DNA of 54,316 nt from a bacterium (GCA_024278555.1 JAJRSX010000203.1:1-54316); one strand, 5' to 3'; numbered from the stretch's first letter, positions 24,974-53,658 are shown. Notes: generated by a model from the sequence alone, not told the origin. Translations and numbers: made by a program.

Positions 24974-25807
24974 ATGTTGAGCATTTTTCGAAAGAAGCAC
25001 GACCGGAAGAAGGAGCTCGAAACCCTCTTCTCCGCCTACGAGCTCCCCACCTTTCCAGCACCGCTGATGAAGGCCCTCCGCCTCCTCCGCGACCCGGCCA
25101 CGCCGCTCAACCAGATCAGCAAAGCCATCTCCGTGGACCCCGGTCTGCACGTCAAGATTCTCACCACGGTAAACTCCGCCGCCTTTGCCCTGCATGCCGA
25201 GGTGCGCACCCTGGAGCACGCAGTGAGCCTCCTCGGACGAGCACGGATCGAGGCGGTCCTCCTCAGCGTCGCCACCCGACAGACGCTGCCCAACTCCCCG
25301 CTGATCAACGAGGCGGACTTCTGGGCCACCGCCGCCCGCCGTGGGGCGGTCGCCCGCCATCTCGCCCAGCGCCTCCACCCGGCGACCGCGGAAGAGGCAT
25401 TTACCGCCGGCCTCCTGCAGGACCTTGCCGTGCCGGTCCTCGCCGCGGCGAGGGCGGACAAGTACGGCGCGGTCATCAGCGCCATGCACACAGACAAGCG
25501 ATCGCTGCCGGAGGTGGAACGGGAGCACTTCAACTTCTCCCACACGGAGGTGGGCGCCTACGTGGCCGAGCGATGGGACCTACCGCCCTACCTGGTGGAG
25601 GCGATCGCCAACCACCACGGCGAGAGCGCCATCGGCGAGGCGGTCACCCTGGTGGCGCCGATCACCGGCAACAACCGGGACGAAGACGCCGCCTACCTCC
25701 TGGGCGTCTACCAGGGCCGCCTCGGGATCTCCACCGAGGAGGCGGAAGGCCTGTTGGCCACCGCCCTCGCCGACGCCGACGCCCTCGCAGCCTCATTCAC
25801 AAATTAG
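24974..25807 (+). CDS. HDOD-domain signalling protein (second copy in window)
   Basis: ATG at 24974 in track ORF 24278..25807. ...LPTFPAPLMKALRLLRDPATPLNQISKAISVDPGLHVKILTTVNSAAFAL...AVSLLG...HTEVGAYVAERW. Confidence 0.8.
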   Translation: MLSIFRKKHDRKKELETLFSAYELPTFPAPLMKALRLLRDPATPLNQISKAISVDPGLHVKILTTVNSAAFALHAEVRTLEHAVSLLGRARIEAVLLSVATRQTLPNSPLINEADFWATAARRGAVARHLAQRLHPATAEEAFTAGLLQDLAVPVLAAARADKYGAVISAMHTDKRSLPEVEREHFNFSHTEVGAYVAERWDLPPYLVEAIANHHGESAIGEAVTLVAPITGNNRDEDAAYLLGVYQGRLGISTEEAEGLLATALADADALAASFTN

Positions 25808-26402
25808 GGCGCTGCCGCCGGACCGCCTCGCGCACCCGCACCGCCTCCTCGCGCTCGCCCTCCTCCAGGGCGTCGGCCAGTACCCGCAGCTCCGTCGCCA
25901 CCTCCGGCAGGAGGACCTCCTCCAGGGCGCGGGCGCGGCGGGCGGTCCGCTCATACACCGCCTTGAGACGGGTGAGGTTGCCGGCGGCGCCGCCGAGGGC
26001 GACGAGCAGCGGCAACAGCGCCGCCCACGCCTCACCGCAGGCGCGCAGCTCCCGGGTGGCCTCAGGCACGGGGGGTGGCGGCGCCGCGGCCCAGCGGGCC
26101 TCCTGAAGGGCGACCCCGAGGCGCGACCGCGCCGCGACGGTCACCTCCCCCGGTGTCTCCCCCACCGGCCGGAGGAGCGGCGCCTCGATTCCGTGGCGCG
26201 CCACCGCCGCCCGCTGGGTGGCCACCGCCCGCGCCCACACCGCCTCGAACCGCTCCCGCAGGGCGTCGTGGGCGGCGAGCTCCCGCACCCCCTCGGCGGC
26301 GAGTGCCAGGCGCATCTCGTCGAGGAAGCGATACCCCTCCCGGAGGGCGCTCTCCTCCGCCCTCAGGTCGAGGTAGGCGGTGCGGGTGCGGGGACGGGAC
26401 AT
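25797..26402 (-). CDS. atpD: V/A-type ATP synthase subunit D
   Basis: 201-aa ORF. N-terminal coiled coil TRTAYLDLRAEESALREGYRFLDE and C-terminal ...YERTARRARALEEVLLPEVATELRVLADALEEGEREEAVRVR match the V_ATPase_D pattern (RRVNALE...IP...L-E-ERE). Confidence 0.8.
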   Translation of the reverse strand: MSRPRTRTAYLDLRAEESALREGYRFLDEMRLALAAEGVRELAAHDALRERFEAVWARAVATQRAAVARHGIEAPLLRPVGETPGEVTVAARSRLGVALQEARWAAAPPPPVPEATRELRACGEAWAALLPLLVALGGAAGNLTRLKAVYERTARRARALEEVLLPEVATELRVLADALEEGEREEAVRVREAVRRQRPNL

Positions 26403-26453
26403 GGGGGGGGCTCGCTTCGCTCGCGCGGGGGTAGCGAACAGCTTTCAACTCTC

Positions 26454-26732
26454 AGAGGATCAGCGGAAACAAGATGGGGTTACCAGACCGTAGGGTCGGC
26501 TTCAGCCGACCGACGCCGTCATCTCAAGAAATGCCGATTGCTCCTAGCTCATGACCGACGATGGGCAATCGGAAAGAGGGCAAGATTCCGGGGGGAGGGG
26601 ATACCACCAACAGGGTCGAGGGAGTCACGAGGTGATCACGGTGCGAGCCTGGAGGGCGATTTCACCACAGAGACACAGAGGGCACGGAGAACTGCAAAGG
26701 AGAGGTGCGTTCCTCCTCTTGGGCCTCGCGAC
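26454..26732 (+). repeat. Left part of the MITE-like repeat copy (C) split by the prophage
   Basis: Starts with terminal repeat AGAGGATCAGCGGAAA (26454-26469). About 90% identical to the reverse complement of 14497-14777. Ends at ...gggcctcGCGAC, directly abutting the phage TG terminus. Confidence 0.85.
26728..26732. repeat. 5-bp target-site duplication, left copy (GCGAC)
   Basis: GCGAC immediately precedes phage terminus TGTAAGCGG... The same pentamer follows the other terminus at 50106-50110. The uninterrupted paralogue has gcaac once at this position. Confidence 0.8.
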
Positions 26733-26789
26733 TGTAAGCGGCCAAGAAGTTTGCGAAGTTTGGACGGAAAGTTTGCGACAGGGTGGGGA

Positions 26790-27782
26790 TCAGGGTCGGG
26801 CATCGGCGGCGAGGGTGGTGGTGTAGCCAGAGGAGGTGATTTTGTGGGTGGCGGTGCGGGTCGTCCAGGGGCCGTCGAGACCGTCGCGGAACCCTGTGAG
26901 ATTGAGCGGGGTCTCGGCGAGGATCGTGGGGTCGCCCGGCAAAGTCAGTTCCAGCTCGCCGGCGCCGCGGGTGAGCTGGTCCAGTTTGGACCGTGCGGCC
27001 GCGAGGGCCTGGGCTGCGTCAGGATAGAGGTGGGTGAGCCGGTAAATGGGCTCGCCTTTACCGGCGGTTTTAGAGCGAGTCAACGCCGCTTGAAGATCCC
27101 GCCACTGGGCGATGACCTGCCGGAACTTGCCGCGCTTGGTGAGGGTGCCACGCCATGAGGTGACGTCCGCGGGCCGCAGCGTCACCGGCGCGATGGTCTG
27201 CCCCGAGACACTCCCCGACCGCCCCCTAGGGGTGAAGATGAGGTGCCCACCCGCTGGTTTGGCGACTGCCCCATATTGGGTCCCGAGGCGGGTGAGCAGG
27301 TTCATGTCGGACTCGTCGACCTGGTCGAGATGGGGAATCGGCACGCCGTCGTAGTCGATCGCCACGGATGGCTGATATCCATGTTCGGCGGCGATGCTGC
27401 GCACCAGGTCGCCAAGGGTGGTTTGGTGCCAGGCGCGGGTCTTTTGGGTCTGGAGGGTGGTGAAGTGGAGCGAGGGGTCAAAGGCGGCGGCGCGGGCACG
27501 GATCGTGAGGGCGGCGGGCGGCCCCTCGATCTCCAGCTCGTCGACGACATAGATGCCCATCTGTTGGAGCTTACCCGCATATCCGATCGAGACCTCCAGC
27601 TCGGCCCCGGTACGGGGGAGCGCAATGCCGCCCCCGGTCTCGCGCCGGCGGTCGTCGATGCGGATGGTGAGCCGATCGTTTTGCCGCCCCGCCTCGTCCA
27701 CCACCGTCAGGGACAGCAGATGCGTGCGGATCACCTCGGTGATGACCTGGGCGTCGGCGACGATGCGGAAGGCGGGGGGCAT
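26790..27782 (-). CDS. Phage late control/tail protein D (P2 gpD-like)
   Basis: ATG at 27782 (MPPAFRIVADAQVITEVIRTHLLSLTVVDEAG...) in track ORF 26790..27965. The P2 gpD pattern is present and it is last in the tail operon, as in P2. Confidence 0.8.
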   Translation of the reverse strand: MPPAFRIVADAQVITEVIRTHLLSLTVVDEAGRQNDRLTIRIDDRRRETGGGIALPRTGAELEVSIGYAGKLQQMGIYVVDELEIEGPPAALTIRARAAAFDPSLHFTTLQTQKTRAWHQTTLGDLVRSIAAEHGYQPSVAIDYDGVPIPHLDQVDESDMNLLTRLGTQYGAVAKPAGGHLIFTPRGRSGSVSGQTIAPVTLRPADVTSWRGTLTKRGKFRQVIAQWRDLQAALTRSKTAGKGEPIYRLTHLYPDAAQALAAARSKLDQLTRGAGELELTLPGDPTILAETPLNLTGFRDGLDGPWTTRTATHKITSSGYTTTLAADARP

Positions 27783-27786
27783 GGCG

Positions 27787-27996
27787 TCAGTCCCACAGGT
27801 GTACCACGCAGGTGGTGTCCGCCGTGTCCGGTAGATCCGGCAGCTCGATGAGTAACCCCGCGGGTAGCTCCGGACCGAGCTCCGCGAGGTGGGGGTTGGA
27901 GTCGAGGACATCCACGATGGCCGACTCGTGTCCGTAGTGGCGCCAGCAGATGCGGTCGAGCACATCCCCCGCGAGGGTGCGGTAGTGGACGCTCAC
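27787..27996 (-). CDS. Phage tail protein X (P2 gpX-like)
   Basis: GTG at 27996 overlaps the gpU stop (GTGA). VSVHYRTLAGDVLDRICWRHYGHESAIVDVLDSNPHLAELGPELPAGLLIELPDL matches the gpX family. Confidence 0.75.
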   Translation of the reverse strand: MSVHYRTLAGDVLDRICWRHYGHESAIVDVLDSNPHLAELGPELPAGLLIELPDLPDTADTTCVVHLWD

Positions 27997-28400
27997 GCCC
28001 CGTCCTCCCCGTAGTAGGCGAGGGCGAGACGGAAGGCGACCTTGCGTGGCGCCCCACCGGGCAGGTGCGCGGATTGGGTCTCCTCGATGCGCTCGATGAC
28101 CCACCGGCCGAGCACCGTGCCCTTTCGCGCGTCGGCTGAGGCGACCAGCATCAGGGGGGCACCCTTCCCCGCCTCGGTGCGCATGGTATCGAGCTGACCG
28201 AGGCCACCTCGATAGTGGGGGTAAATGATGCCATCTAGCTCGACAGTCTGGTTACCAGGGCCAACGTATTGGCGGGCCGGCTCCCGTCCGATCCGGTCTT
28301 GGGCCGGCCACCGGTACTCGTTTACCCGGCGCAGCGTCTGGTAGGCGGCGGTGTCGACAGAGAAGCGGTAACCACCGAGGGCGAGCATCACCTCAGCCAT
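27993..28400 (-). CDS. Phage tail protein U (P2 gpU-like)
   Basis: 135-aa ORF. MLALGGYRFSVDTAAYQTLRRVNEYRWPAQDRIGREPARQYVGPGNQTVELDGIIYP is the typical gpU N-terminus. Confidence 0.8.
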   Translation of the reverse strand: MAEVMLALGGYRFSVDTAAYQTLRRVNEYRWPAQDRIGREPARQYVGPGNQTVELDGIIYPHYRGGLGQLDTMRTEAGKGAPLMLVASADARKGTVLGRWVIERIEETQSAHLPGGAPRKVAFRLALAYYGEDGA

Positions 28401-30762
28401 CGCCGAGCCCCTCGTGTTGGCGGGCCATCAGGCGGGCGACTTCCTCCGCCAAGGCGTGCACGTCCTGCCCGGGGCGTGCGGTGATGTGGAAGGTGTTGGT
28501 CTGGTGGTAGGTGATGGTGTGTCCCGCGGGGGCGGGCTCCGGAGGGCGGGGCGGCGCGGCAGAGGGCGACGCTCCGGCCGCGAGATCGGAGGGGACTTGC
28601 GCCACCGGCGTCGCCGGCCGTACCACGGGAGGGGGCACCGCCACCGGCGCCGCCGGCCGTACCCGTGGGGTGGCCGGCGGCGGCGGGACCGGCGCGGCCG
28701 GTGGGAGTGCAGCCTGACCGGGGAGTGGGGCCGTGGCGATGACGGCGCCGAGGGTGGCGGCGGCCGCGGTTTGCTGGAAACGGTGGGTCACGGTTTTGCC
28801 ACCACCGCCACCGAACCACTTCGCCACCGCCGCAAACGGCGCGGAGATCTTCTCCCACATGCCCCCGACCCAGCCGGCAAACTTCGCCCATACCGCCTTG
28901 ATCGGCTCCCAGATGCGCAACAGGAATCCCTTCACCTTGGACCAGTTGGCGATGATCAGCCCGGCCCCGAGGGCGATCACGGCGATCGCCGCGCCGATCG
29001 GGTTGGCGGCGATCGCCACTCCCAGCATACGCAGGCCGGCGACCACAGCCGGGATGGCGCCGCGCGCCAGCCCCAGCAAGGTCCCGCCGAAGGACTTGAG
29101 CCCGCCGCCGATGGCCAGGGCGCGGGTCCGCACCGCGGTGATCAAGGCCACCGCATTGAAGCCGCTCATCCGTTCGGTCGTCCAAGTAATCATCCGCCCT
29201 ACACCTGCCGCGGTGTTCCCGGCCATGGTCCACGCATCGGAGAACAGCGTCCCGACGTACTTGCTCACCATGGCGGCGGCGGTGAATCCGGCAAACCCCA
29301 GGGTCGCGCCTCCCAGCACCATGCCGAGGGCGGGGACCTTTGCCACGGCGATTCCCACCCACCGGGCGACCGCAGCGATGGGGGTGAGGACGGCGTTCAG
29401 GGCTGGCACCAAGGTGCCGGCGAGGAGGTTACCGACGATCTTCAGATTTTGGCCGAGCGTTCGGAGCCGGCCTCCGGTGGAGGCCAGAAAGTCCTGATAG
29501 GCGGTGTCCACCACGCCACGGGAGCCGTCGGCCACCGCCCGATAGCCCTCCGTCAACCCCGCCATATTGCCCAGCAGCAGGGCCACGGCGCTGCCCTCGT
29601 CGCCGAACGCCTTTTGCAGGGCGGCGGCACGAGCATCCACGTCGGTGCCATAGGCGGCGTCGAGGGCCTCTTTCAGATGGCCGAGGGTGCCCACCAGGTC
29701 CATCTCCCCGGCGGCGTTGCGCTCGATGGTGAAGCCGAACTGCTGCGACGCCCGACCCAACTGGCGCAGGACGGCGTTGAAGGCGGTGCCGGCGCGGCCG
29801 CCCATCAGACCGGCGGTGTTGAAGCTGCCCAAGGTGGCGGCGGTCTGTTCGAGCGAGACCTTGTACTTGATCGCCGCCGCCGCCCCCTCCTTGAACGACT
29901 CGCCGAGCTGGCCAAAGTCGCGAATCTGGAACTTGAATTGGGTCTTGGTGAGGACGTCGCCGATACGCGCCAGCTTGTCGGTGGCGGTGCCGGCGATCGC
30001 CGCCCCCAGGTTATTGAAGACCACCCCCACCACTTCGCCTACCTGGGCGGCCGAGCCCTGGGTGACGGTGGCCACCTTGTGGACAATCTCGGTGCCGAGG
30101 CGTGCGGTGGCTGCATCCAGGCCGGCGGAGTCCAGGGCGTACTCAATATTGAGCACCTCGACCTCCGAGGCGAGCGAATCGCGGGCGAAGTCGAGGGCGT
30201 GGCGGCGGGAGGCTTTTAGCGCCGCGGCGGTATCCTTGGCATTGATCACCGTGCGGAGACGCACCTGCGCATCCTGCACCTCGATGGCGCCGCCGAAGAT
30301 GCGGCTCGCCGCGTAGGCCGCCCCGAGGGTGCCGATCGCCTTGGCGTGCAGCTCGCTACGGACCTGGGCGTTGCGCTCGCGGGTCGCCACCCGCGCCAGC
30401 GATGCCTCGGCGCGGGTGGCGGAGCGCTCCAGCCGGCGATGCTGGCGCACCACGTCGCCAATGGAGACCCCGTAGGCCCGGGCCGCCTGCTTGGCGTCCC
30501 GGTAGCGACGCTCCACCTCCGCAATCCCCGCGTTCAGGCGGGAGGACGAGCGGCCGAGGGTGGCCTGTTTCGCCTTGAGCCCCTCCAGGGTTGACCTATA
30601 CTTGATGACGTCGGCGGCCAGGGTGGCGCCGAGGCGGTGGCGCTTGGCCGTCTCCCCGATCTTGACGATCCGCTGTTCGGTGGAGCGGAACGCCTTCCCC
30701 AGGGTCTCGGAGACCGCGCCGCCGATGACGATCGAGAGTGCGAGGGACTTACCGAAGGGCAT
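28393..30762 (-). CDS. Tail tape measure protein
   Basis: 789-aa ORF between the E/E' chaperone and gpU. Ala/Gly-rich helical protein with hydrophobic segments. The N-terminus KSLALSIVIGGAVSETLGKAF is typical of P2-type tape measures. Confidence 0.85.
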   Translation of the reverse strand: MPFGKSLALSIVIGGAVSETLGKAFRSTEQRIVKIGETAKRHRLGATLAADVIKYRSTLEGLKAKQATLGRSSSRLNAGIAEVERRYRDAKQAARAYGVSIGDVVRQHRRLERSATRAEASLARVATRERNAQVRSELHAKAIGTLGAAYAASRIFGGAIEVQDAQVRLRTVINAKDTAAALKASRRHALDFARDSLASEVEVLNIEYALDSAGLDAATARLGTEIVHKVATVTQGSAAQVGEVVGVVFNNLGAAIAGTATDKLARIGDVLTKTQFKFQIRDFGQLGESFKEGAAAAIKYKVSLEQTAATLGSFNTAGLMGGRAGTAFNAVLRQLGRASQQFGFTIERNAAGEMDLVGTLGHLKEALDAAYGTDVDARAAALQKAFGDEGSAVALLLGNMAGLTEGYRAVADGSRGVVDTAYQDFLASTGGRLRTLGQNLKIVGNLLAGTLVPALNAVLTPIAAVARWVGIAVAKVPALGMVLGGATLGFAGFTAAAMVSKYVGTLFSDAWTMAGNTAAGVGRMITWTTERMSGFNAVALITAVRTRALAIGGGLKSFGGTLLGLARGAIPAVVAGLRMLGVAIAANPIGAAIAVIALGAGLIIANWSKVKGFLLRIWEPIKAVWAKFAGWVGGMWEKISAPFAAVAKWFGGGGGKTVTHRFQQTAAAATLGAVIATAPLPGQAALPPAAPVPPPPATPRVRPAAPVAVPPPVVRPATPVAQVPSDLAAGASPSAAPPRPPEPAPAGHTITYHQTNTFHITARPGQDVHALAEEVARLMARQHEGLGDG

Positions 30763-30905
30763 GATGGCTCAGACGGCGATCGCGGTGGTGCTCGGCTCGT
30801 TGGCGGCCGTGTGGGTGGTGTTGCTCGACCCCGCCGTGGCCGACGGTCTCTCCCAGGTCCAAACATGTCTCGCCGGCCTGTTCCTCGGCGCGCTGTGTAC
30901 CCTCA

Positions 30906-31312
30906 TCATGCGACCGGTCGCCGGCCTTCTGGTTGCGCTCGGGGCAGGGCTGAGATCCATTGCATCAGCTCCTCGCCGGTGAGCTCCAGCAGCTCGGTCA
31001 GCCCCCACCCGGTGTGCTGAGCGAGGAGGATGCAGGCGCGTCGGGCGTCCTCGGCCCGGAGGACAAAAAAGAGGCGTACACCTTCTGGAGGCGCAGGTAG
31101 TCCACCAGGTCGAGGGCCTCGATCACCGCCGGCGCCACCTCCGCCAGGTTGGCGAACAGGGTGACCTCTTGCGCGGCCGACGATGCGGAACCCTTTTCGG
31201 CGGCGAGCATGTCCCGCACCTTGGGGCGACGCAGGGTGATGTGGTCGGTCGCCACCCCCTCCACCGTCACCGGGTAGGTCAGCTTCACGGTCGTGTCATC
31301 GATATTCCTCAC
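30906..31312 (-). CDS. Predicted -1 frameshift product E+E' (about 135 aa)
   Basis: Slippery T TTT TTG lies at 31064-31070 (gene strand), in codons S81-F82-L83. The -1 frame stays open for 52 further codons (VLRAEDARRACILLAQHTGWGLTELLELTGEELMQWISALPRAQPEGRRPVA) to the TGA at 30906-30908. P2 uses the same heptamer and position for E/E'. Confidence 0.65.
30998..31312 (-). CDS. Tail assembly chaperone (P2 gpE-like), zero-frame product
   Basis: 104-aa ORF directly upstream of the tape measure. ...TVKLTYPVTVEGVATDHITLRRPKVRDMLAAEK...LFANLAEVAPAVIEALDLVDYLRLQKVYASF is gpE-like. It contains the slippery heptamer T TTT TTG. Confidence 0.75.
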   Translation of the reverse strand: MRNIDDTTVKLTYPVTVEGVATDHITLRRPKVRDMLAAEKGSASSAAQEVTLFANLAEVAPAVIEALDLVDYLRLQKVYASFLSSGPRTPDAPASSSLSTPGGG

Positions 31313-31530
31313 GCGGTCGCCCCCTTCTTGGCCGGCGCCGCGCCCTTGGCCGGGGTGGTGGCGGGCTTCGCCGCCGTTACCGGCTCGATGAAGCCGCCGG
31401 CGCGGAGGTAGCGTGCCTGCCGGTCGGTCATCTCCACCACCTCCCCCGCCGCGAACGAGCGGTGGTCATGAATCAGGGGCGTGCAGACGGTGTATCGCCG
31501 GGTCGCCGGCGCTTTCTTGGGGGTGGCCAT
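31309..31530 (-). CDS. Small hypothetical phage protein with Ala/Pro/Lys-rich tail
   Basis: 73-aa ORF between the tube and gpE genes with 4-nt overlap onto the gpE start. No family recognised. Confidence 0.5.
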   Translation of the reverse strand: MATPKKAPATRRYTVCTPLIHDHRSFAAGEVVEMTDRQARYLRAGGFIEPVTAAKPATTPAKGAAPAKKGATA

Positions 31531-31581
31531 GGACTTGATCTCCAGAGGGGGGGGTGGGAGGTCGATGGGGTGAGCGGGGGC

Positions 31582-32085
31582 TCAGATGCCCAACGCGGCG
31601 CGGGTAGAGGCGAGGCGGTCGACGCCGTCGATCATGCGGACCATGTTCTCCACGTCGATCTCGTGGACCACGCGGCCGCCGTGGGTCAGCTTGTAGTAGC
31701 GCACCGCCACCGTCCCCTTCAGCTTCGCCAGGTCGCCCGCCTTCCACGTGCCGGGGTCCAGCTCGGTGAGGCTCCCGGAGAGGTTCACCACCACCGGGGT
31801 GACGGTGCCGTCCTCGCTCTCCACCGCGCCGCGGAAGGTGAGAGGCACGAGGTTCCCCGGCGCCAGGCCGAAGCGGGCGAGCACCTCGGCATCGAAGGCG
31901 GTGAGGGTGAAGGTCGCCTCCATTTCCTCCATCCCCATGTCGATCTTCACCGGGGCATCCATGCCGCCGGCGCGGTAGTCCTCGGTCTTCACCGTCAGCT
32001 TCGGGGGGGTCAGATCCTCCACCCGGCCGGCGTAGCCGTAGCCATCGACGGACAGGGTGAGGTTCTTCAACAGGTCGGTAATCAT
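31582..32085 (-). CDS. Major tail tube protein (P2 FII-like)
   Basis: 167-aa ORF. NLTLSVDGYGYAGRVEDLTPPKLTVKTEDYRAGGMDAPVKIDMGMEEMEATF closely mirrors the P2 FII N-terminus. Confidence 0.88.
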   Translation of the reverse strand: MITDLLKNLTLSVDGYGYAGRVEDLTPPKLTVKTEDYRAGGMDAPVKIDMGMEEMEATFTLTAFDAEVLARFGLAPGNLVPLTFRGAVESEDGTVTPVVVNLSGSLTELDPGTWKAGDLAKLKGTVAVRYYKLTHGGRVVHEIDVENMVRMIDGVDRLASTRAALGI

Positions 32086-32143
32086 GGTTACGGTCTCCTT
32101 GATGGCGGGTGGTCCCCGCCGGTACGGCTGGCGGTCACTCCCC

Positions 32144-33325: not shown

Positions 33326-33349
33326 GGGGTGGTCTCCTGAAGGTGCGGG

Positions 33350-34777: not shown

Positions 34778-34792
34778 GGGGTTGGGTTTTCG

Positions 34793-35404: not shown

Positions 35405-35407
35405 CGG

Positions 35408-44289: not shown

Positions 44290-44384
44290 TTGCTAGAGTC
44301 CGTTCACGGTGTCGAGGTGAGGGCCGTGCCCCACCGACCCTCGGCATTTGCCCACCCTTGCCGCGGGGGGTGAGGCCCCATTTC

Positions 44385-45928: not shown

Positions 45929-47538
45929 CGGCCCTCCCCCACCTCGAAACGGCCCGCGAGGTCGGCGGCGGTGAAGGCTTGTTGCAAGGTGGCGGCGAGG
46001 TCGGAGACCCCCATCTCCGGGTAGAGGGCGAGCAGCCCGTCGCGGAGCTCGTCCATCGACCGGGCGGTGGCGACCAGGCGGCGGACCGGGGCGAGGAGCC
46101 CATCCATGGCGCTCGCGGCCGCCTCGTCCAATTGGTCGGCGTAGTGGTCGGCGGTGTCGGGGTCGGGATCCCCGGCCCGGAGGGCGGCGCAGTGGGGGCA
46201 GGCTCCCCGGAGGGCCGGATTCATCCGGCCCACGGCGTCCGGCGGGTGGAAACCCGCCCTACGGAGCGCGGCCTGGCCGAACGGCAGTGCCGGCCGCAGC
46301 ACCTCCTCGTCCTCCTGGGGCCTCGGGATGCGGAGCTTGTCGTGGGCGTAGTCGAGGGGGATCTCCATCCCCACCTCCACCAGCTTGGGAATGGCGTCGG
46401 CGTAGAGCTTGAGGTCCTCGGGCTCGCGGGTGTCGAAGCGGAAACGGGGGCCGCGGCCGGGATCGAGGCCGGGCAGGTTAAGGGTGGCCAGGGGCCACAC
46501 CAGGTCGCGGGTGAGGGTGGAGGCGAGTTGCAGGGCGTCGGCCACCAGGAGGTCGTGGCGCACCTCGTTGTGGACGGTACCCAGGGCGTTGGTGCTGGTC
46601 TTGCCGTCGGCCTGGCTGGTGAGCGTGCCGCCGAGGATGGCCTTCGACTGGGTGCGCTCACACCAGTCGATCATCGCCTGGAAGGGGTCGGAGCGGTCGG
46701 CCGCCGCCTCCTTGAAGTCGACCATCATCCCCTCGGGGATGATGCCGGCGGCGTTGTGGCCGAGGTTGACCACGGCGCGGAGCAGGGTGGCCTTTTCCTT
46801 GTCCGAGCTGCCCGGCGGGTAGGTCCCCAGCCGCAGGGGCAGGCCGTAGATCTCCAGGAACTCGGCCAGGTCGCGGACGCTGTAGTTCTTGAACAGGTAG
46901 GGCCAGGCGAGCACCCGGTGGAGGCCGGCGCGGCCCAGGTAGCCACTTTTCGCCTTGTGGATGTGGGTGATCCAGGAGAACGGCCGCAGCGCCTCGGTCT
47001 CCTGGCCCTTCCTGCGCAGGAGCAGCCGGTCGTGGTTTTCCTTGGCGACGGTGAACCAGCGCGGCGGCCGGTGGGTGATGTCCGACGGCACCCACTCGTT
47101 ACCGTCACGACCCCAGGTGATCTCCAGGCAGGAGAACCCCTTGCCGATGGCGTCGGCCATGTCCAGGAGGGTGTCTTCGAAGTTGGACAGGTCGCGGAGC
47201 ACGTCCCCCACCCACTCGGCCGCCGTCTCCTCGGTGGCGGTGGCGCCCCTGGGGGCCACCACCTCCCAGTCCAGCCCGAGGAGTGCCCGGCGGCGTTTGG
47301 ACAGCTCGGCGTAGATGTGGCCGTCCCTCTCCTCCATGTCGTCGAAGAGGTCGCATTGGGCGGTGAGGTCGCCGCGCTCGGCGTCGGTGAGGATGGAGGC
47401 GAGCTTGGCGGGGGTCAGCCCGCGGGCCGGGTGGTCGGCGAACTCCTTGTGGAGGTGGCCGAGCTTCGCGGTCTGGGCGGCTTGCAGGTCGCCGCTCTTC
47501 ACGGGGTGGCCGCGGTGGTCGAGGATCGTTGCCATCAT
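45925..47538 (-). CDS. Portal protein (Mu gp29 / DUF935)
   Basis: ATGATG at 47533-47538 preceded by AGGAGAA, inside track ORF 45925..48018. MMATILDHRG...DHPARGLTPAKLASILTDAERGDLTAQCDLFDDMEERDGHIYAELSKRR. The 160 upstream codons are Pro/Arg-rich junk. Confidence 0.88.
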   Translation of the reverse strand: MMATILDHRGHPVKSGDLQAAQTAKLGHLHKEFADHPARGLTPAKLASILTDAERGDLTAQCDLFDDMEERDGHIYAELSKRRRALLGLDWEVVAPRGATATEETAAEWVGDVLRDLSNFEDTLLDMADAIGKGFSCLEITWGRDGNEWVPSDITHRPPRWFTVAKENHDRLLLRRKGQETEALRPFSWITHIHKAKSGYLGRAGLHRVLAWPYLFKNYSVRDLAEFLEIYGLPLRLGTYPPGSSDKEKATLLRAVVNLGHNAAGIIPEGMMVDFKEAAADRSDPFQAMIDWCERTQSKAILGGTLTSQADGKTSTNALGTVHNEVRHDLLVADALQLASTLTRDLVWPLATLNLPGLDPGRGPRFRFDTREPEDLKLYADAIPKLVEVGMEIPLDYAHDKLRIPRPQEDEEVLRPALPFGQAALRRAGFHPPDAVGRMNPALRGACPHCAALRAGDPDPDTADHYADQLDEAAASAMDGLLAPVRRLVATARSMDELRDGLLALYPEMGVSDLAATLQQAFTAADLAGRFEVGEGR

Positions 47539-47762
47539 TTCTCCTGGGCGGTGTCCCCGGTGACGACGTGACCCCGGAAGAGGAGCGGCGGGCACCAGTG
47601 GAAACAGGGGTCCACCGGCACAAACGAGCGCAGCTCGCCGGAGGGCGCGAGCCACAGGAAGTGGGGGAACCAGCCGTAGTGGGAGCGCCGCACCACCAGG
47701 TAGCCGCCGAGGCGGAACCAGCGGGAGAGCGCCCAGAGCAGGCAGTTGGAGCGGGTCACCAT
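47535..47762 (-). CDS. Small hypothetical protein coupled to the portal gene
   Basis: 75-aa ORF (MVTRSNCLLWALSRWFRLGGYLVVRRSHYGWFPHFLW...) with 4-nt overlap onto the portal start. It sits where a large terminase gene would normally lie but has no terminase features. Confidence 0.5.
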   Translation of the reverse strand: MVTRSNCLLWALSRWFRLGGYLVVRRSHYGWFPHFLWLAPSGELRSFVPVDPCFHWCPPLLFRGHVVTGDTAQEK

Positions 47763-47899
47763 GCGCCGACCTCCTGGGGCAGGAGATCGTCGACGTCGTC
47801 GTCAACGTCGGCCGAGCGGTCCCAGATGGAACCCTTGTCCGGGGCGGCGGTGTACTCGATGGGGGCGGGCCGCATCTCGGAGACGGCGTACTCGGCCAT
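47756..47899 (-). CDS. Possible 47-aa acidic ORF, first gene of the structural operon
   Basis: ATG at 47897-47899. MAEYAVSEMRPAPIEYTAAPDKGSIWDRSADVDDDVDDLLPQEVGAW. The stop overlaps the next ATG (ATGGTGA). No SD and no family recognised. Confidence 0.3.
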   Translation of the reverse strand: MAEYAVSEMRPAPIEYTAAPDKGSIWDRSADVDDDVDDLLPQEVGAW

Positions 47900-47980
47900 G
47901 GCCAGGGCGACCAACGCCGCGCCGTGCTCGCCCGGCTCACCGAGCGTGGCGCCCGCTTCGCCCCCAAGGACGCCCCGCAG

Positions 47981-48187
47981 ATGGTCGCGAGCGACGAGCG
48001 GTGGCCGATGATGCACAAGGTCGAAGCGCTGCTGGCCGAGGCCCACCGGCCGTGGGCCTACGCCCACGCCGTGGCGAAGCACATGTTCAACCGCCCCCGG
48101 GTCGACCACCTCACCCCGCGCGACCTCCACAAGCTCATCGCCGCCCTCATGGCCGACGCCCGCCGCCACGGCCGGAGGGTGCAATGA
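47981..48187 (+). CDS. GemA/Mu gp16 (DUF1018)-like protein, C-terminal half only (probably truncated)
   Basis: ATG at 47981 (AAGGA upstream) in track ORF 47924..48187. KVEALLAEAHRPWAYAHAVAKHMFNRPRVDHLTPRDLHKLIAALMADARRHG resembles only the last roughly 55 residues of the gp16 family as I recall it. The family N-terminal half is missing. Confidence 0.45.
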   Translation: MVASDERWPMMHKVEALLAEAHRPWAYAHAVAKHMFNRPRVDHLTPRDLHKLIAALMADARRHGRRVQ

Positions 48188-48684
48188 GCGGCCCGACCCA
48201 GGCGCAGGAGGTCCCCATCGAGGCGTCCGTGATCCCGCCCGTCGTGCCGGTGGAGATCACCGGCTGGGACGCCGCCGGCCCGCCCCCCACCACCTGTCCG
48301 CGCTGCCACACCTCCGGCCTCCTGCGCTGGGAGCGCCTCGACGACATCGGCCCCTACGCCCTCGCCGCCCGCTGCCTGTGCGGCCACCTCTCCTACCACC
48401 AAGCGGTCGTTCGGGTCGTCCGCCGATCGCCGGACGAAGAGCGAGCCATCGCCAGAAACCGGCGTCTCATCCCCATCGAGCGCTGCGACCTCTGCGGCAC
48501 CGACCGGGCCCGGATCCACGGCCTCTGTGCCCGCTGCGCCTCCCGCGAGCTCAAGCGCGGCACCAAGGACGCCGCCTACACCCCGTGGTACCAGCTCCCC
48601 GCAGCAGACCGCACCGAGACCGAGCGCGCCGCCCGCCTGATCCTCGGTACTCGAAATCACCGGCACCCCGAACCCCGAGGCTAA
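48184..48684 (+). CDS. Cys-rich zinc-ribbon protein, unknown function
   Basis: ATG at 48184 overlaps the previous stop (ATGA). 166 aa with CPRCH...CLCGH and CDLCG...CARC pairs. Confidence 0.55.
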   Translation: MSGPTQAQEVPIEASVIPPVVPVEITGWDAAGPPPTTCPRCHTSGLLRWERLDDIGPYALAARCLCGHLSYHQAVVRVVRRSPDEERAIARNRRLIPIERCDLCGTDRARIHGLCARCASRELKRGTKDAAYTPWYQLPAADRTETERAARLILGTRNHRHPEPRG

Positions 48685-48689
48685 CCCCC

Positions 48690-49124
48690 ATGGCCGAACA
48701 ACCTGACCTCCCCCTGGGCGCCATGGAATGCGACGTCGACGCCCTGCTCGCCCGCCTCGACGACCTCGACGCGGTGGCGCCGGCCGATGCGTGGCCGCAG
48801 ACCCTGGCGGACCTCTTCGACATCCTCACCGACCACTACACCCGCCGCCGCGATCACCCCGAGGCGGACGCCCGGCGCGAGGCCGAGGAGATCGTCATCC
48901 TCCTCGCCCACTGGCTCGGCGGCCGTCCGGTGTATCTGCCCCGCGACGACTCCCTCCGCCGCGCCCTGCGCGACGCGGACATCTACCGCGACTTCGGCCG
49001 GCGCTCCGCCGCCGAGCTCGCCCAGGCCCACCGCCTCACCCCCATGCAGATCTATCACATCATCCAGCGCCAACGGCGGCTCCATCAGGGACGAGTGCAG
49101 CGGGAGCTGTTTCCTGAGGAGTAG
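48690..49124 (+). CDS. Mor/C-family transcriptional activator (Mu middle/late regulator type)
   Basis: 144-aa ORF. ...ILLAHWLGGRPVYLPRDDSLRRALRDADIYRDFGRRSAAELAQAHRLTPMQIYHIIQRQR is the Mor-family core with a C-terminal HTH. Confidence 0.75.
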   Translation: MAEQPDLPLGAMECDVDALLARLDDLDAVAPADAWPQTLADLFDILTDHYTRRRDHPEADARREAEEIVILLAHWLGGRPVYLPRDDSLRRALRDADIYRDFGRRSAAELAQAHRLTPMQIYHIIQRQRRLHQGRVQRELFPEE

Positions 49125-49132
49125 CCGTAGCC

Positions 49133-49381
49133 ATGGCCCTCAACCTCTGGCTGGATAAGCTCCGCAAACAAATGCAGGCCGCCCACGACCGGGCGGAGGC
49201 GCGATACTACTACTTTCCGGACCTGAAGGATCGCGCCGCCCTCGGCAAGTGGCTGAAGAAGTCCGCGGCCCAGCACGAGCGCGAATCGCAAAGGCATCTC
49301 GATCGACTGTCTGAACTAAGAAGAGACATCTCTGACCTCGATTCCCTGATCTACTGGGAACGGCAGAGTAAGCGTCGGTGA
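49133..49381 (+). CDS. Small charged coiled-coil protein, unknown function
   Basis: 82-aa ORF with lower GC than its surroundings. Last ORF before the phage terminus. Confidence 0.45.
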   Translation: MALNLWLDKLRKQMQAAHDRAEARYYYFPDLKDRAALGKWLKKSAAQHERESQRHLDRLSELRRDISDLDSLIYWERQSKRR

Positions 49382-49688
49382 CGCTCCCTCCCCCGTGCCG
49401 GGGTCGGCGCCGCCGCTTTGGGGCGCTCGAAACCCGCATGGAGTCCCGGCTCCCAGCCGTGTCCATCGACAGCAGAACAGACCTGACATGTTGCAAATCT
49501 CGACGCACGCTACACATACCGAACCATTGCAGTCCTCCCCAAAATAGAAGGCCGCACGTCTACGTTGCGCCATGATTGAGCCGGAGGCGAGGCGGCCCCG
49601 TCGGAGAAGGAGGAGATTTGCTCCCTTGCCGCCACCGGCCATAGTGCTCGTGCCCTGGCTGAGCTGTACGGGTGTCATGCAACTGTAG

Positions 49689-49797
49689 CAGCGTACTTTT
49701 CTCCATTGGGGTTGTCGGCCTTTCGCCGCCGGTGCAGTTGCCGTTAAATCAGTGGGTTAGCGAGAAAAGTACGCTCCACCTAGAAAAGTACGCTGCC
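49689..49797. promoter_or_regulatory. Three copies of a 13-nt box AGAAAAGTACGCT (one inverted, two direct): candidate operator or transposase-binding sites
   Basis: AGCGTACTTTTCT at about 49690-49702. AGAAAAGTACGCT at about 49763-49775 and 49782-49794. They lie 310-415 bp from the phage terminus in a 725-bp ORF-poor, lower-GC segment. Confidence 0.4.
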
Positions 49798-50105
49798 GTA
49801 CCATTCGCCCGCCCAAAATCAGCCCCCTCCGAGTCCCCCCTCAATCCATGTGACAGCTAGTTTTTTTCTGTTTGCATAAGGGTTTGAACGCCGGTCACGG
49901 GCAATCTTGCAATAATATGCAAAGCCCCTCCGAAGCCCCTCCGAAGCCCATACCCCCCCAAATCACCGCTGCGTTCGTTGCGACACTCCCCCACGCCCCC
50001 GTCGAGCTCCCCACCCCCTAACCCCTTGCCCCTCAACACCTTTCCCACCAAATCCCACCATCCCCCACCCCATCCCGCCCTTCGCATCCATCCTGACCCC
50101 CCACA

Positions 50106-50110
50106 GCGAC
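50106..50110. repeat. 5-bp target-site duplication, right copy (GCGAC)
   Basis: Follows phage terminus ...ccccccaCA. Identical to 26728-26732. Confidence 0.8.
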
Positions 50111-50289
50111 GGAGCGCCACGGGGTTGCCGTGCACGAGGACGGCGCAAAATCGTGTTGTTTTCTGATGGAGTTCTCTGTGCCCTCTGTGTCTCTGTGGTG
50201 AAAAATCCCTTCCGGGAGCCCTCCACCTCCCGGCCGAGGCGTGGAGCGACGCCGTACTTGGCCTGCATCGCTATTTCCGCTGATCCTCT
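50111..50289 (+). repeat. Right part of the MITE-like repeat copy (D) split by the prophage
   Basis: ggagcgccacggggttgccgtgcacgaggacggcgcaaaatcgtgttgttttctgatggagttctctgtgccctctgtgtctctgtggtg continues exactly where 26732 stops, relative to copy B. It ends with terminal repeat TTTCCGCTGATCCTCT (50274-50289), inverted relative to 26454-26469. Confidence 0.85.
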
Positions 50290-50339
50290 CAGCGGTGGAG
50301 ACTCGGCCGCGGCGACGCGCCGCGGGGCCGTCAGGTTAC

Positions 50340-50428
50340 GGTAGGAACCGGCTCCCGCCGGCGATCCGCGCCGCGAGGCGCGGCAGGCCCTCTGGGCCTG
50401 GTTCGCGAGCGGGAGCTCGCTCCTACCC
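50340..50428. repeat. REP-like long hairpin
   Basis: GGTAGGAACCGGCTCCCGC...GCGGGAGCTCGCTCCTACC: inverted arms about 19 nt long separated by about 50 nt, related to the GGTAGGAG REP family. Confidence 0.6.
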
Positions 50429-50488
50429 TTTCTGTGGGGCGTGTTGGCTTTCATCGACATGTCATTCGGCCCGAAGGGCCGTCCTTCC

Positions 50489-51898
50489 CTATTTCCCTAC
50501 CTCCCTATCTCCGCCCACGTGGGCCGCAATCTGCTCCCCGCTCAACCGGTGCAGCTCCTCCCGCGGCAGGAGCCGCAGGGCGGCCCAGCCGGCGGTCATC
50601 GACTCGGCGAGGGTGCGCGGCCCCTCCTGGGCGACGACCTCGCGCTCGAAATGGTCGCCGAAGCGGAGGTAGGCGCGGTCGACCTCCGAGACCCCCTCCT
50701 CCCCCACCACCGAGGCGAGGACCCGCGCCTGCACCGCGCGGGCGTAGGAGGCGTAGAGCTGGGTGGCGAGGGCCGGGTGGTCCGGGTGGGTGAAGCTGTC
50801 GCCGGTGCCGTCCTTCATCAGCCGCGAGAGCGACGGCAGCACCTTCACCGGCGGGTAGAGGCCACGGCGGGCGAGGTCGCGATCCAGGACGATCTGCCCC
50901 TCGGTGATGTAGCCGGTGAGGTCGGGGATCGGGTGGCTCATGTCGTCGCCGGGCATGGTGAGGATCGGGAGCTGGGTGATCGAGCCGGCCACCCCGCGGA
51001 TCCGGCCGGCGCGCTCGTAGAGGGAGGCGAGATCAGAGTAGAGGTAGCCCGGGTACCCCTTGCGCGCCGGGATCTCCCCGTGGCCGGCGGAGACCTCGCG
51101 CAGGGCCTCGCAGTAGTTGGTCATGTCGGTGAGGATCACCAGGACGTGGCGGTGCTCGGTGAAGGCGAGGTACTCGGCGGCGGTCAGCGCCACCCGCGGC
51201 GCCAGGAGCCGCTGCGCCGGCGGGTCGGAGGCGAGGTTGAGGAAGAGGGTGGTGCGCGCCGCCCCGCCGCTCGCCTCCATCGCCCGCCGGAACCGCTCGG
51301 CGGTGGCGTGGGGGATGCCGATCCCGGCGAAGCAGACGGCGAACCCCTCCCCCTCCCGGTCGTCCCCCGCCGCCGGCAGGCGGGCGTGGCGAAGGAGGTC
51401 GATGGCGATCCGATCGTGGGGCAGGCCGCCGCCGGAGAAGATCGGCAGCTTCTGGCCGCGCACCAGGGAGTCGAGGAGGTCGATGGCAGTGATCCCGGTC
51501 TCGATGAACTCCGACGGCGCCACCCGCGCCACCGGCTTGATCGCCAGGCCGTCCACCCGCCGCGCCTCGACCGCCGCCACCGGCGGGCCGCCGTCGATCG
51601 GCTTCCCCACCCCGTTGAAGGTGCGGCCGACCATCCCCGGCCCCACCGCCAGCTTCAGGGGCTCGCCCATGAGCCTGACCCGGGTGGTCGCCAGGGCGAG
51701 GTTGGTGGTGGACTCCAGGAGCTCGACCACGATCCGCTCCTCGTCCACCGCCGCCACCCGCCCCAGGCGCGTCCGGCCATCGTCGCCCACCACCTCCACC
51801 GCCTCGTTGTAGCCCGCCGCGGCGGTCCGCCGGAGAAAGAGGAGCGGCCCGTCGATCCGCGCCAGGCCACCGGAGAGGACCACCGGCAGCCGGCTCAC
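50489..51898 (-). CDS. atpB: V/A-type ATP synthase subunit B
   Basis: GTG (VSRLPVVLSGGLARIDGPLLFL...) overlaps the atpA stop, inside track ORF 50489..53107. 469 aa. Motifs GRTFNGVGKPIDGGP, GQKLPIFSGGGLPH and ILTMPGDDMSHPIPDLTGYITEGQI. Confidence 0.9.
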   Translation of the reverse strand: MSRLPVVLSGGLARIDGPLLFLRRTAAAGYNEAVEVVGDDGRTRLGRVAAVDEERIVVELLESTTNLALATTRVRLMGEPLKLAVGPGMVGRTFNGVGKPIDGGPPVAAVEARRVDGLAIKPVARVAPSEFIETGITAIDLLDSLVRGQKLPIFSGGGLPHDRIAIDLLRHARLPAAGDDREGEGFAVCFAGIGIPHATAERFRRAMEASGGAARTTLFLNLASDPPAQRLLAPRVALTAAEYLAFTEHRHVLVILTDMTNYCEALREVSAGHGEIPARKGYPGYLYSDLASLYERAGRIRGVAGSITQLPILTMPGDDMSHPIPDLTGYITEGQIVLDRDLARRGLYPPVKVLPSLSRLMKDGTGDSFTHPDHPALATQLYASYARAVQARVLASVVGEEGVSEVDRAYLRFGDHFEREVVAQEGPRTLAESMTAGWAALRLLPREELHRLSGEQIAAHVGGDREVGK

Positions 51899-53658
51899 CG
51901 TCCCCCCTCCCCGCCGCCGCCGTGGCCCGCCGGACAGCCGAGGCGGGTGAAGTCCTGCTCCACCGCCTCTTCGAGGGTCGCAAAGGCCGCCTCCCCAACC
52001 ACCTCCTCGCCCATGCGCAGGAGACGGCGGTAGCTCTCCAGCGCCGTGATCGTCTCCGGCTCCACCCCGCACTCGAGGGCCTCCTCCGCCAGGTCGAGGA
52101 AGCGCGCCACCACCCGCACCATGGCCGCCTGGCGCGCGGGCGGACAGCGGCCGTCCACCGGCGAGAAGGCGGACTGGCGCAGGAGGGCCTCGTTCACCAG
52201 CCGCGCCTCCACGAGAATCAGCCGCTGGGCCGGCGGCAGCGCCTCGGCGCCGAGGATCCGCGCCATCCGCGCCAGCCGCCGCTCCTCCTCCAGGAGGGTG
52301 AGCATCCGGGTGCGCACCTGCTCCCAGTGGGGCTGGCCGTGGGCCTGCCACCACGGGGCGAGCCGCTCCGCCTCCTCGCTGTACGAGGTGAGCGGGTGGA
52401 TCGCCGGGTAGAAGCGGGCGTGGGCGCGCTCCGTATCCAGGACCCACACGGCACGCACGTAGCGGCGGGTGTGGACCACCACCGGCTCCTCCATGTCGCC
52501 CGACGGCGGGCTCACCGCGCCCAGCAGGGTGACCGACCCCTCGGTGCCGGCCAGGGTCCGCACCCGGGCGGCGCGCTCGTAGAAGTCGGCGAGACGGCTG
52601 GAGAGGTAGGCGGGGTAGCCCGCCTCGCCGGGCAGCTCCCCGAGGCGGCCGGAGACCTCGCGCAGGGCCTCGGCCCAGCGGGAGGTCGAGTCGGCCATCA
52701 CCGCCACGGAGAGCCCCATGTCGCGGAAGTACTCGGCGACGGTGACCCCGGTGTAGATGGAGGCCTCGCGCGCCGCCACCGGCATGTTCGAGGTGTTGGC
52801 GATGATCACCGACCGCTCCATCAGCGGCCTGCCGCTCTGCGGATCCTCCAGCTCCGGCAGCTCCGCCAGCAACCCGGCGAGCTCGTTGCCCCGCTCGCCG
52901 CACCCGACATAGACGATCACGTCCGCGTCGCACCCCTTGGCGAGGGATTCGAGCATCACCGTCTTGCCGGTGCCGAAACCGCCGGGGATCGCCGCCGAGG
53001 CGCCGCGCGCCACCGGCAGGAAGGTGTCGATGATCCGCTGGCCGGTGATCAAAGGCGCGTCCGCGACCAGGCGCGCCGCCACCGGCCGCGGCTCCCGCAC
53101 CGGCCATGGGTGGGCGAGGGAGACCTCGACCTCGTCGCCGGCATCGGCCCGCACGGTGCAGACGGTCGCGTCATCCTGGTACGCCCTGGCCGCCGCCACC
53201 CGCACCACCTCCCCGGCCACCCGCGGCGGCGCCAGGGCGGGCACGGTGCGGCCGCCGACCGCCACCTCCCCGAAGGGGTGGCCGGCGACGAGGCGCTCCC
53301 CCGGCCGCACCGTGGGGGTGAAGGCGAGGGGGGGGGTGGCGCCGGCCGGGGCGCCCGGCCGCACAAAGGGGTCGTCGCCGAGGTGGAGCGGCCGCAGGAG
53401 GCCGTCGAAGGTCCCCCCCAACAGCCCCGGCGACAGGCGCACGGCCAGGGGCGCGCCGCTCCCCTCCACGGTCGCCCCGGGCGCCAGGCCGGTGGTCTCC
53501 TCGTACACCTGCACGACGATCTCCCCCGCCTCCAGACGGACCACCTCGCCGAGGAGGCCGAGATCGCCGACCCGCACCGCCTCGCGCATGGCAAAGGGGG
53601 CCTCGGGCCGCGCCCGCACCACCGGCCCCCCCACCCAGGTGACCCGCGCGGTGCTCAC
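51895..53658 (-). CDS. atpA: V/A-type ATP synthase catalytic subunit A
   Basis: GTG at about 53658 (VSTARVTWVGGPVVRARPE...) in track ORF 51895..53775. Walker A IPGGFGTGKTVM, GCGERGNE and SRWAEALREVSGRLGELPGEAGYPAYL. Confidence 0.9.
   Translation of the reverse strand: MSTARVTWVGGPVVRARPEAPFAMREAVRVGDLGLLGEVVRLEAGEIVVQVYEETTGLAPGATVEGSGAPLAVRLSPGLLGGTFDGLLRPLHLGDDPFVRPGAPAGATPPLAFTPTVRPGERLVAGHPFGEVAVGGRTVPALAPPRVAGEVVRVAAARAYQDDATVCTVRADAGDEVEVSLAHPWPVREPRPVAARLVADAPLITGQRIIDTFLPVARGASAAIPGGFGTGKTVMLESLAKGCDADVIVYVGCGERGNELAGLLAELPELEDPQSGRPLMERSVIIANTSNMPVAAREASIYTGVTVAEYFRDMGLSVAVMADSTSRWAEALREVSGRLGELPGEAGYPAYLSSRLADFYERAARVRTLAGTEGSVTLLGAVSPPSGDMEEPVVVHTRRYVRAVWVLDTERAHARFYPAIHPLTSYSEEAERLAPWWQAHGQPHWEQVRTRMLTLLEEERRLARMARILGAEALPPAQRLILVEARLVNEALLRQSAFSPVDGRCPPARQAAMVRVVARFLDLAEEALECGVEPETITALESYRRLLRMGEEVVGEAAFATLEEAVEQDFTRLGCPAGHGGGGEGGR

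Follow-up and report, generated by a model that had tools for sequence, protein, structure and literature searches.

Nested insertions of repeat DNA and a Mu-like prophage remnant probably split a V/A-type ATPase operon between atpB and atpD in an uncultured high-GC bacterium

In the V/A-type ATPase operons of Thermus (atp) and Enterococcus hirae (ntp) the gene order is A-B-D, with D as the last core gene, and the E. hirae Na+-ATPase ntp operon ends with the K+ transporter gene ntpJ. Coliphage Mu transposes in a near-random manner and leaves a 5-bp duplication of its target, and Mu-type phages are known to land within genes as well as between them. The B3-like phages were described with an inverted early operon (PMC5977238), and for the saltoviruses insertion hot spots next to REP-like palindromes (REP, repetitive extragenic palindrome) were reported. 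Prophages in which an internal deletion strips mobility, regulation and lysis while the structural genes stay fixed are called 'grounded' (PMC6379469). Here we describe a 54,316-bp stretch of DNA of an uncultured high-GC bacterium (GCA_024278555.1 JAJRSX010000203.1:1-54316, hereafter the window; ~70% GC throughout), in which atpB and atpD of a V/A-type ATPase stand on two sides of a prophage. The atpB-atpD junction was very probably split by nested insertions of mobile elements, namely a palindrome, a repeat resembling a miniature inverted-repeat transposable element (MITE) and a Mu-like phage, followed by an internal deletion in the phage. The phenomena are already known (Mu-type insertion, grounded prophage), and the window locus is a new instance of them.

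The ATPase genes and their non-coding neighbours are as follows.

25797-26402, minus strand: atpD, V/A-ATPase central-stalk subunit D, PF01813 ATP-synt_D, intact
26403-26448: native atpD leader, 46 nt, GCGAGCGAAGCGAGC followed by eight C and the ATG, no Shine-Dalgarno-like motif
50489-51898, minus strand: atpB, V/A-type ATPase subunit B, NF003235 at 613 bits (cut-off 349)
51895-53658, minus strand: atpA, V/A-type ATPase catalytic subunit A, GTG start at 53658, NF003220 at 675 bits (cut-off 470)
53659-53872: spacer between the E-like gene and atpA, non-coding, 214 nt, folding into a long imperfect hairpin
53873-54316, minus strand: 3' part of an E-like stalk subunit gene, upstream of atpA and running past the window end

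All three genes atpA, atpB and atpD are located on the minus strand, and 24,086 bp lie between the atpB stop and the atpD start, so that the separation of about 24 kb given in the initial annotation was confirmed, with coordinates exact almost to the base. The locus shares gene order and family matches with the Thermus and E. hirae operons, and differs from them in a D gene placed 24 kb from B, in the 214-nt E/A spacer and in a divergent D; contiguity of A, B and D in one transcription unit was not found here. The GTG start of atpB overlaps the atpA stop as GTGA, and atpA, with four Pfam domains, has 84% nucleotide identity with the contig L169 (L- and P-numbers are our labels for the contigs and proteins of relatives retrieved for comparison). 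The open reading frame (ORF) 25797-26402 had been named subunit D, and this stands: it matches PF01813 with E 9e-18 and 65 bits (cut-off 25.7), covering nearly the whole profile (3-191 of 196 positions), aligns full length to the Thermus subunit D chains of a solved structure (PDB), and shares 65-84% amino acid identity with the homologues P0002-P0006. Its scores fall under the NCBIfam cut-offs, and it is therefore considered a divergent member of subunit D. For the atpE-like gene a correction is needed: it is not the ORF 53655-54293, and its frame, with a third-position GC of 0.93, extends from 53873 as far as the window end. This E-like gene has no match in Pfam or NCBIfam; in L171 and L169 a gene of 202 or 205 aa stands before atpA, and the two show 73-77% nucleotide identity. 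In both contigs the E-like gene overlaps atpA and the 214-nt spacer is absent; therefore a second junction of the same operon seems to have gained extra DNA. The spacer also has a weak match to the terminal repeat of the MITE-like element at 53676-53690.

A scan of species-representative genomes with AtpB retrieved about 30 proteobacterial relatives (AtpB identity 60-71%), and the AtpD match starts 20-60 nt past the AtpB match in nearly every one; two have a B-D gap of ~1.3 kb and one has 139 nt. Closer relatives were reached through AtpD homologues, and L169 (GCA_002789415.1) and L171 are the two closest contigs containing both atpB and atpD. L169 is syntenic, with ~83% nucleotide identity on both sides of the gap (window 12114-26406 and 50514-54312), and carries I-K-x-E-A-B-D in a single block with a B-D spacer of 94 nt. 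The membrane-sector genes I and K are upstream in L169, and the corresponding region is beyond the end of the window. L171 contains F-E-A-B-D with a spacer of 66 nt. The initial annotation had asked for genomes lacking the insertion and had allowed that atpD might normally be distant from atpB in relatives; A, B and D are contiguous in L169, L171 and most of the ~30 relatives, atpD directly follows atpB, and such a distance is excluded. The ancestral state was a contiguous operon ending E-A-B-D, with a B-D spacer below ~100 nt.

The region around atpD was compared further in these relatives. Upstream sequences were compared by eye, and the atpD leader was found to be kept in L165, L170 and L171: this conserved stretch of 22 nt, GCGAGCGWAGCGAGC with a C-run (about 5-8 C, broken in L170), stands directly before the atpD ATG in the window, L165 (1-120), L170 (1-303) and L171 (4316-4381). 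No Shine-Dalgarno-like motif was found in the leader of any of these four, and the conserved leader may be a control element for the translation or stoichiometry of subunit D. Downstream of atpD the genes vary: the window and L162 have HDOD-domain and pentapeptide/ion-channel genes (window 23988-25807, plus strand), L165, L166 and L170 have trkH-trkA, and L169 has neither set. Three independent contigs of the closest AtpD relatives (84% identity) end 40-105 nt upstream of atpD (L162 1-40, L163 1-99, L164 1-104), and the breaks fall within a different palindromic repeat, GGGGGTTGCACCCCCGATCCGG..., which suggests that the B-D junction of this lineage also took up repeat DNA.

The prophage occupies 26733-50105. 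Its length of 23,373 bp agrees with the 23.4 kb first annotated, and it is bordered by a 5-bp target-site duplication.

26728-26732: target-site duplication GCGAC, left copy, adjoining the prophage
26733-26789: prophage right end, TGTAAGCGGCC... with repeated GAARTTTGCGA motifs
49382-50105: prophage left end, non-coding, terminus ...CCCCCCACA, low GC
50106-50110: target-site duplication GCGAC, right copy, adjoining the prophage

The termini are TG...CA: the prophage starts with TGTAAGCGGCC... (terminal sequence TGTAAGCGG...) and its other end is ...CCCCCCACA, and the two ends form an imperfect terminal inverted repeat of 26 bp, identical at 19 positions. The junction reads ...GGCGCTCC GTCGC / phage / GTCGC GAGGCCC..., and an intact copy of the surrounding repeat has one GTTGC at that place. 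The target preference of Mu is N-Y-(G/C)-R-N, which the duplicated target GTCGC (coding strand) fits. These ends, the inverted repeat, the 5-bp duplication and the target fit indicate that the phage entered through transposition and not through site-specific integration. The non-coding left end has ~61% GC against 70%; in it the 12-mer GAAAAGTACGCT occurs directly at 49764-49775 and 49783-49794 and inverted at 49690-49701, and CCCCTCCGAAG is repeated twice in tandem at ~49925-49946. These repeats are candidate binding sites for a transposase or a regulator.

When the prophage and one GCGAC were removed in silico, a B-D spacer of 708 bp was left, holding a MITE-like repeat of 467 bp (26449-26732 plus 50111-50293, delimited by folding and motif searches); about 710 bp and about 460 bp had been estimated.

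26449-26727: MITE-like repeat, left half, terminal inverted repeat 26455-26469, inner arm 26648-26696
50111-50293: MITE-like repeat, right half, terminal inverted repeat 50274-50288, inner arm 50167-50215
50294-50488: atpB-side part of the spacer, a short GC hairpin directly following the atpB stop, together with a long REP-like palindrome

Positions 52-420 of the reconstructed spacer align to window 14777-14409 with 95.4% identity over 369 bp, and the junction is free of gaps. From this gap-free restoration together with the 5-bp duplication, it follows that the phage entered inside a pre-existing repeat; it sits within the MITE-like element and not beside it, as the initial annotation had placed it. 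A 15-nt motif, GAGGATCAGCGGAAA, is found in inverted orientation at both ends of the repeat as its terminal inverted repeats, and the arms of the inner hairpin carry the 23-nt motif CACCACAGAGACACAGAGGGCAC, which occurs six times in the window against an expectation of zero. Further copies are found at 14409-14777 (369 bp, 95%) and, partial, at 12877-13092, with fragments at the contig ends of L165 and L166. The element is small and non-coding, with terminal inverted repeats and multiple dispersed copies, as a MITE is; 'MITE-like' is the safest label because no target duplication of its own was identified, nor a parent element within the window.

The REP-like palindrome (~50331-50428) is 88% identical to L170 74-168, upstream of atpD. 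L170 contains this palindrome and neither the MITE-like repeat nor the phage, and the palindrome is therefore older than both; L165 has ~130 nt with both native flanks, no palindrome and no MITE-like repeat. The order of events is accordingly read from these sequences as short spacer, palindrome, MITE-like repeat and phage. The initial annotation was right that a long palindrome lies in the spacer and that successive insertions hit the same site; the status of REP is not borne out by repetition, as the palindrome occurs once in the window, and in place of two insertions there are at least three nested layers.

Two other accounts of the repeats were rejected. An inversion between the arms 26648-26696 and 50167-50215 does not fit, since atpD still shares its strand with atpAB and the two arms make up one hairpin of an interrupted repeat. 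A REPIN (REP doublet forming a hairpin) with its RAYT transposase was considered for the ORF 13083-13958 between two copies, which was judged by eye, with no family search, to have five CxxCH motifs and a signal-like N-terminus and to resemble a multi-haem cytochrome and not a transposase. At the gathering threshold, Rfam revealed two tRNAs in the whole window and nothing in the spacer or the MITE-like repeat. Between recO and tRNA-Pro, 2.1 kb of extra DNA (12756-14846) stands in the place of a ~79-nt gap in L169; it includes the ORF 13083-13958, multi-haem cytochrome c-like, bracketed by the repeat copies 12877-13092 and 14409-14777, and further G-rich repeats at ~14100-14400.

The gene content of the prophage is best compared with Pseudomonas phage H71 (MH719190), a B3-like saltovirus with the same layout, in which Mor, a hypothetical gene and GemA follow from the left end and read toward that end. 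The early operon of H71 runs leftward and ends with GemA, the hypothetical gene and Mor, and the late genes run in the opposite direction, from terminase and portal to the right end. The prophage modules are listed in the order of the window.

26790-27965, minus strand: gpD-type tail protein gene, PF05954, phrog_52
26790-40807, minus strand: connector genes and P2-type contractile tail module (baseplate V/W/J/I, fibre, sheath, tube, chaperone, tape measure, gpU, gpD)
40825-47538, minus strand: Mu-type head module (portal, F-like minor head, gpG/S-like, protease/scaffold, structural, major head)
47763-47923: deletion-junction interval, with ~14-15 kb predicted to be lost
47924-48187, plus strand: gemA remnant, 5'-truncated, PF06252 GemA, E 4.8e-6, 27.9 bits (cut-off 27)
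48190-48684, plus strand: Cys-rich phage ORF with zinc-ribbon-like motifs, in the position of H71_02, only sub-threshold zinc-ribbon matches
48691-49125, plus strand: putative Mor-like transcription activator gene, adjoining the left end in position, as H71 Mor
49133-49381, plus strand: small phage ORF of 82 aa, no family match

The gemA remnant, the Cys-rich ORF, the Mor-like gene and the 82-aa ORF all read toward the element end. An inversion to explain the orientation of mor and gemA was rejected, since the H71 map shows the same orientation, which is normal for B3-like phages. The head module matches phrog_113, 220, 26, 328, 1731 and 371 as well as PF04233, the portal matches PF06074 Portal_Mu (E 6e-112), and amino acid identity to H71 ranges from 29 to 59%, the portal, F, protease and major head proteins being 37-59% identical and collinear. 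The tail genes stand in P2 order (phrog_9992, 43, 6/4226, 48, 327, 23, 55, 166, 28, 76, 52), and the sheath protein has 68% identity to Pseudomonas phage PPpW-3. All late genes, from portal to gpD, are on the atpD strand, and about 20 structural ORFs look full-length compared with their profiles. These matches identify the prophage as a Mu-like transposable phage whose layout is of the B3/H71 type and which combines a Mu-type head with a contractile tail of the P2 type.

The F-like minor head protein (44385-45629, minus strand) has a C-terminal PBECR2 nuclease-like domain (PF18810, E 4e-20), a part which resembles a toxin-type domain fused to a virion protein. An ORF of 75 aa (47535-47762, minus strand; MVTRSNCLLWALSRWF...) abuts the portal start; it has good coding statistics and no family match, and in L136, a related viral contig, the frame next to the portal is short as well. 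This ORF was tried as the C-terminus of TerL and rejected, with neither BLAST support nor a family match. No close phage relative was found in IMG/VR (best portal identity 59%), exact-protein look-ups of the major head protein and of AtpD gave no record, and metagenome scans with AtpD peptide patterns and a 33-nt atpD-leader pattern revealed no empty-site or MITE-only allele of the same species.

The prophage has evidently lost an internal part. No homologues of H71 TnpA, TnpB, TerL, endolysin, holin or repressor were found in the whole window (E <= 1e-3), and no ORF of transposase size in 47300-50105. The gemA remnant covers positions 31-119 of the 119 in PF06252, the first 30 profile positions being gone. 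In 64 of 66 related viral contigs the ORF that abuts the portal gene has 400 codons or more (median 552), compared with 89 codons in the window. Despite the loss of early, lysis and terminase genes, the genes from portal through the head remain collinear with H71. One deletion with its junction in 47763-47923 would explain the missing genes, the 89-codon frame and the cut 5' end of gemA together: from the H71 map, a single internal deletion of ~14-15 kb, reaching from the middle of gemA to the gene directly ahead of the portal, would have taken the rest of gemA, transposases A and B, the repressor/operator region, the lysis genes and terminase. With transposase, terminase and lysis genes lost, the element is unable to move, to package DNA or to lyse the cell, and the prophage is best regarded as a 'grounded' remnant with both ends kept.

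The likeness to the B3-like phages and saltoviruses extends to transposition with a 5-bp stagger and, for the window, to an insertion in palindromic repeat DNA. The differences are considerable: those phages have a long flexible tail, a genome of ~38 kb and Pseudomonas hosts, whereas the window phage has a P2-type contractile tail, measures 23.4 kb, lacks transposases A/B, repressor, lysis genes and terminase, has at its left end one more ORF, of 82 aa, along with ~720 nt of non-coding sequence, and resides in an uncultured high-GC bacterium. With coliphage Mu it shares the TG...CA termini, the 5-bp duplication and an operon insertion that parts distal genes from their promoter; it differs in the opposite orientation of the early operon and in an insertion into an intergenic repeat and not into coding sequence, and compared with Mu insertion mutagenesis the polarity here is deduced from sequence. 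As it keeps both ends without A and B, the element is formally mini-Mu-like. The grounded prophages show the same loss pattern; evidence of host benefit or domestication was not found for the window element.

From these observations, the history of the locus was most probably as follows. A contiguous operon ending E-A-B-D with a short B-D spacer received a REP-like palindrome in this spacer, and the 467-bp MITE-like repeat then inserted between the palindrome and atpD. The Mu-like phage transposed into the loop of the inner hairpin of this repeat, duplicating 5 bp, and an internal phage deletion finally stranded the element. The insertion appears to be evolutionarily recent, since the ATPase genes and the phage genes that are left are all intact.

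As to the transcription of atpD, the gene starts 387 nt past the gpD stop on the same strand, downstream of the phage late genes, as the initial annotation had it with about 390 bp. An operon transcript would have to cross the palindrome, half of the repeat and ~2 kb in which that strand is either non-coding or runs antisense to phage genes, a likely site of Rho-dependent termination, and finally 21 kb of phage late genes. Efficient co-transcription of atpD with atpAB is therefore unlikely. Strong phage late transcription also seems unlikely, because the deletion would have removed the early promoter region along with any late activator near terminase and because the mor-like gene lost its upstream operon. 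Of the two sources proposed for atpD expression in the initial annotation, a nearby promoter may still serve, and read-through from phage transcription becomes less plausible with the early promoter region presumably deleted. No intrinsic terminator was found in 25700-27100, and read-through from the tail genes is conceivable since nothing terminator-like follows gpD. Most likely atpD would get only weak transcription, from such read-through or from a fortuitous promoter in the 387 nt composed of phage end, MITE half and leader.

The initial annotation expected the insertion to matter physiologically unless the ATPase is dispensable or atpD has its own promoter; the chance that the pump is impaired appears to us about even. 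A defect is judged tolerable because the ATPase looks accessory: TrkH-type K+ transporter genes (trkH-trkA) follow atpD in the closest relatives of the window, as ntpJ does in the E. hirae Na+-ATPase operon, a hint that the enzyme serves as an accessory ion pump and not as the main ATP synthase.

Several points weigh against the interpretation of a nested insertion that silences or weakens atpD. The locus was read from a single 54-kb metagenomic contig, with the junctions inside a multi-copy repeat. The Mor assignment is weaker than the others, with a match of 34% identity to H71 Mor over 50 residues (53-102, E 1e-4) and none in Pfam. No sigma-70 consensus promoter was found in 25700-27100, in a scan that covered near-consensus sites only, and promoters at 70% GC often deviate from these. 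An intact atpD without excess change would fit continued function as well as a very recent insertion. By dN/dS there is no signal of accelerated protein change or decay in atpD: the ratio is 0.35-0.44 in all pairs, including those without the window sequence, at a divergence too great to resolve a recent event and with absolute values inflated by extreme third-position GC.

These points bear on the strongest alternative, a split without functional effect, which we hold possible and take seriously, though we are more inclined to doubt it. Here atpD would have, or would have gained, its own promoter within the 387 nt, the V-ATPase would assemble normally, and atpD might already have been uncoupled from atpAB once the 708-bp spacer of palindrome and MITE-like repeat arose. 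Even before the phage came, the spacer measured 708 bp and was highly structured, a state that the operon had survived. The gene is intact, and in the three-taxon decomposition the non-synonymous branch of the window lineage is the shortest (dN 0.029, compared with 0.065 and 0.086). Outward promoters in MITEs and in the ends of insertion sequences are well known, and the leader GCGAGCGWAGCGAGC with its C-run is conserved in the window, L165, L170 and L171. However, the same leader stands within the 66-94-nt spacers of the contiguous operons of L171 and L169, which suggests co-transcription, and the absence of a sigma-70-like promoter in the scanned interval speaks against this explanation too.

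The insertion interpretation itself could be extended to a recurrent landing pad: the atpB-atpD junction would repeatedly receive palindromic mobile DNA, and the stranded phage would be a natural mini-Mu, mobilisable by a helper and packaging atpD and its neighbours. The elements of this reading are the palindrome shared with one relative, the different palindromic repeat upstream of atpD in another lineage, the MITE-like repeat of the window with a phage aimed at its hairpin, and a stranded phage with both ends and a full set of virion genes. We regard this as improbable.

Slightly less credit still is given to an assembly artefact or minority allele, in which the phage would sit in another MITE copy or in part of the population and the contig would be threaded through a shared repeat. 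This idea draws on the window being one whole metagenomic contig, on the multi-copy nature of the MITE family (the window has two further copies, and traces occur in the contigs of relatives), and on the contigs of close relatives, which end exactly upstream of atpD. However, both junctions would have to be chimeric, and an alternative direct path normally breaks a contig and does not extend it. The longest exact matches of the flanking MITE halves to the other copies in the window are 64 and 52 nt, so that a chimera through these copies is unlikely with large k-mers; both are shorter than k=141, a value suggested by the 'k141_' names of related contigs and not of the window itself.

It is very improbable that the remnant is domesticated or helper-dependent, that is, a mini-Mu-like element headful-packaging adjacent DNA including atpD, or a particle-producing module kept by the host. 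Both prophage ends with their repeated motifs are intact, the structural ORFs are full-length against their profiles, and it is established what mini-Mu elements require in cis and in trans (PMC3145075). A recent deletion would account for the intact ORFs just as well, however, and terminase, lysis genes and transposase are absent. The same deleted layout was found neither in IMG/VR, where the portal identity reaches 59% at best, nor in the metagenome scans. We know of no helper phage.

A site-specific prophage acting as a reversible switch (active lysogeny), whose precise excision would restore the operon, has only the general resemblance of a prophage interrupting an operon in its favour and is ruled out in practice by anatomy, as the prophage has no integrase or recombinase and no transposase, has a 5-bp duplication and transposon-type TG...CA ends in place of att core repeats, and carries a Mu-type head and early genes, and Mu-type elements do not normally excise precisely.

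Splitting by nested insertion, with the phage as a grounded remnant, is thus the reading we prefer. The locus provides a clean, datable series of nested insertions and leaves current understanding unchanged; it gives one more case of a Mu-like phage that landed in palindromic repeat DNA, as was reported for the Pseudomonas saltoviruses, and for annotation the element should be recorded as a defective Mu-like prophage and not as an integrase-type prophage. If atpD is silenced, the rotor stalk of an accessory V/A-type ATPase would be naturally knocked down in this bacterium, which would suggest that its habitat makes the pump dispensable; if atpD is expressed, the stoichiometric stalk subunit would be supplied from a transcript separate from that of A3B3.

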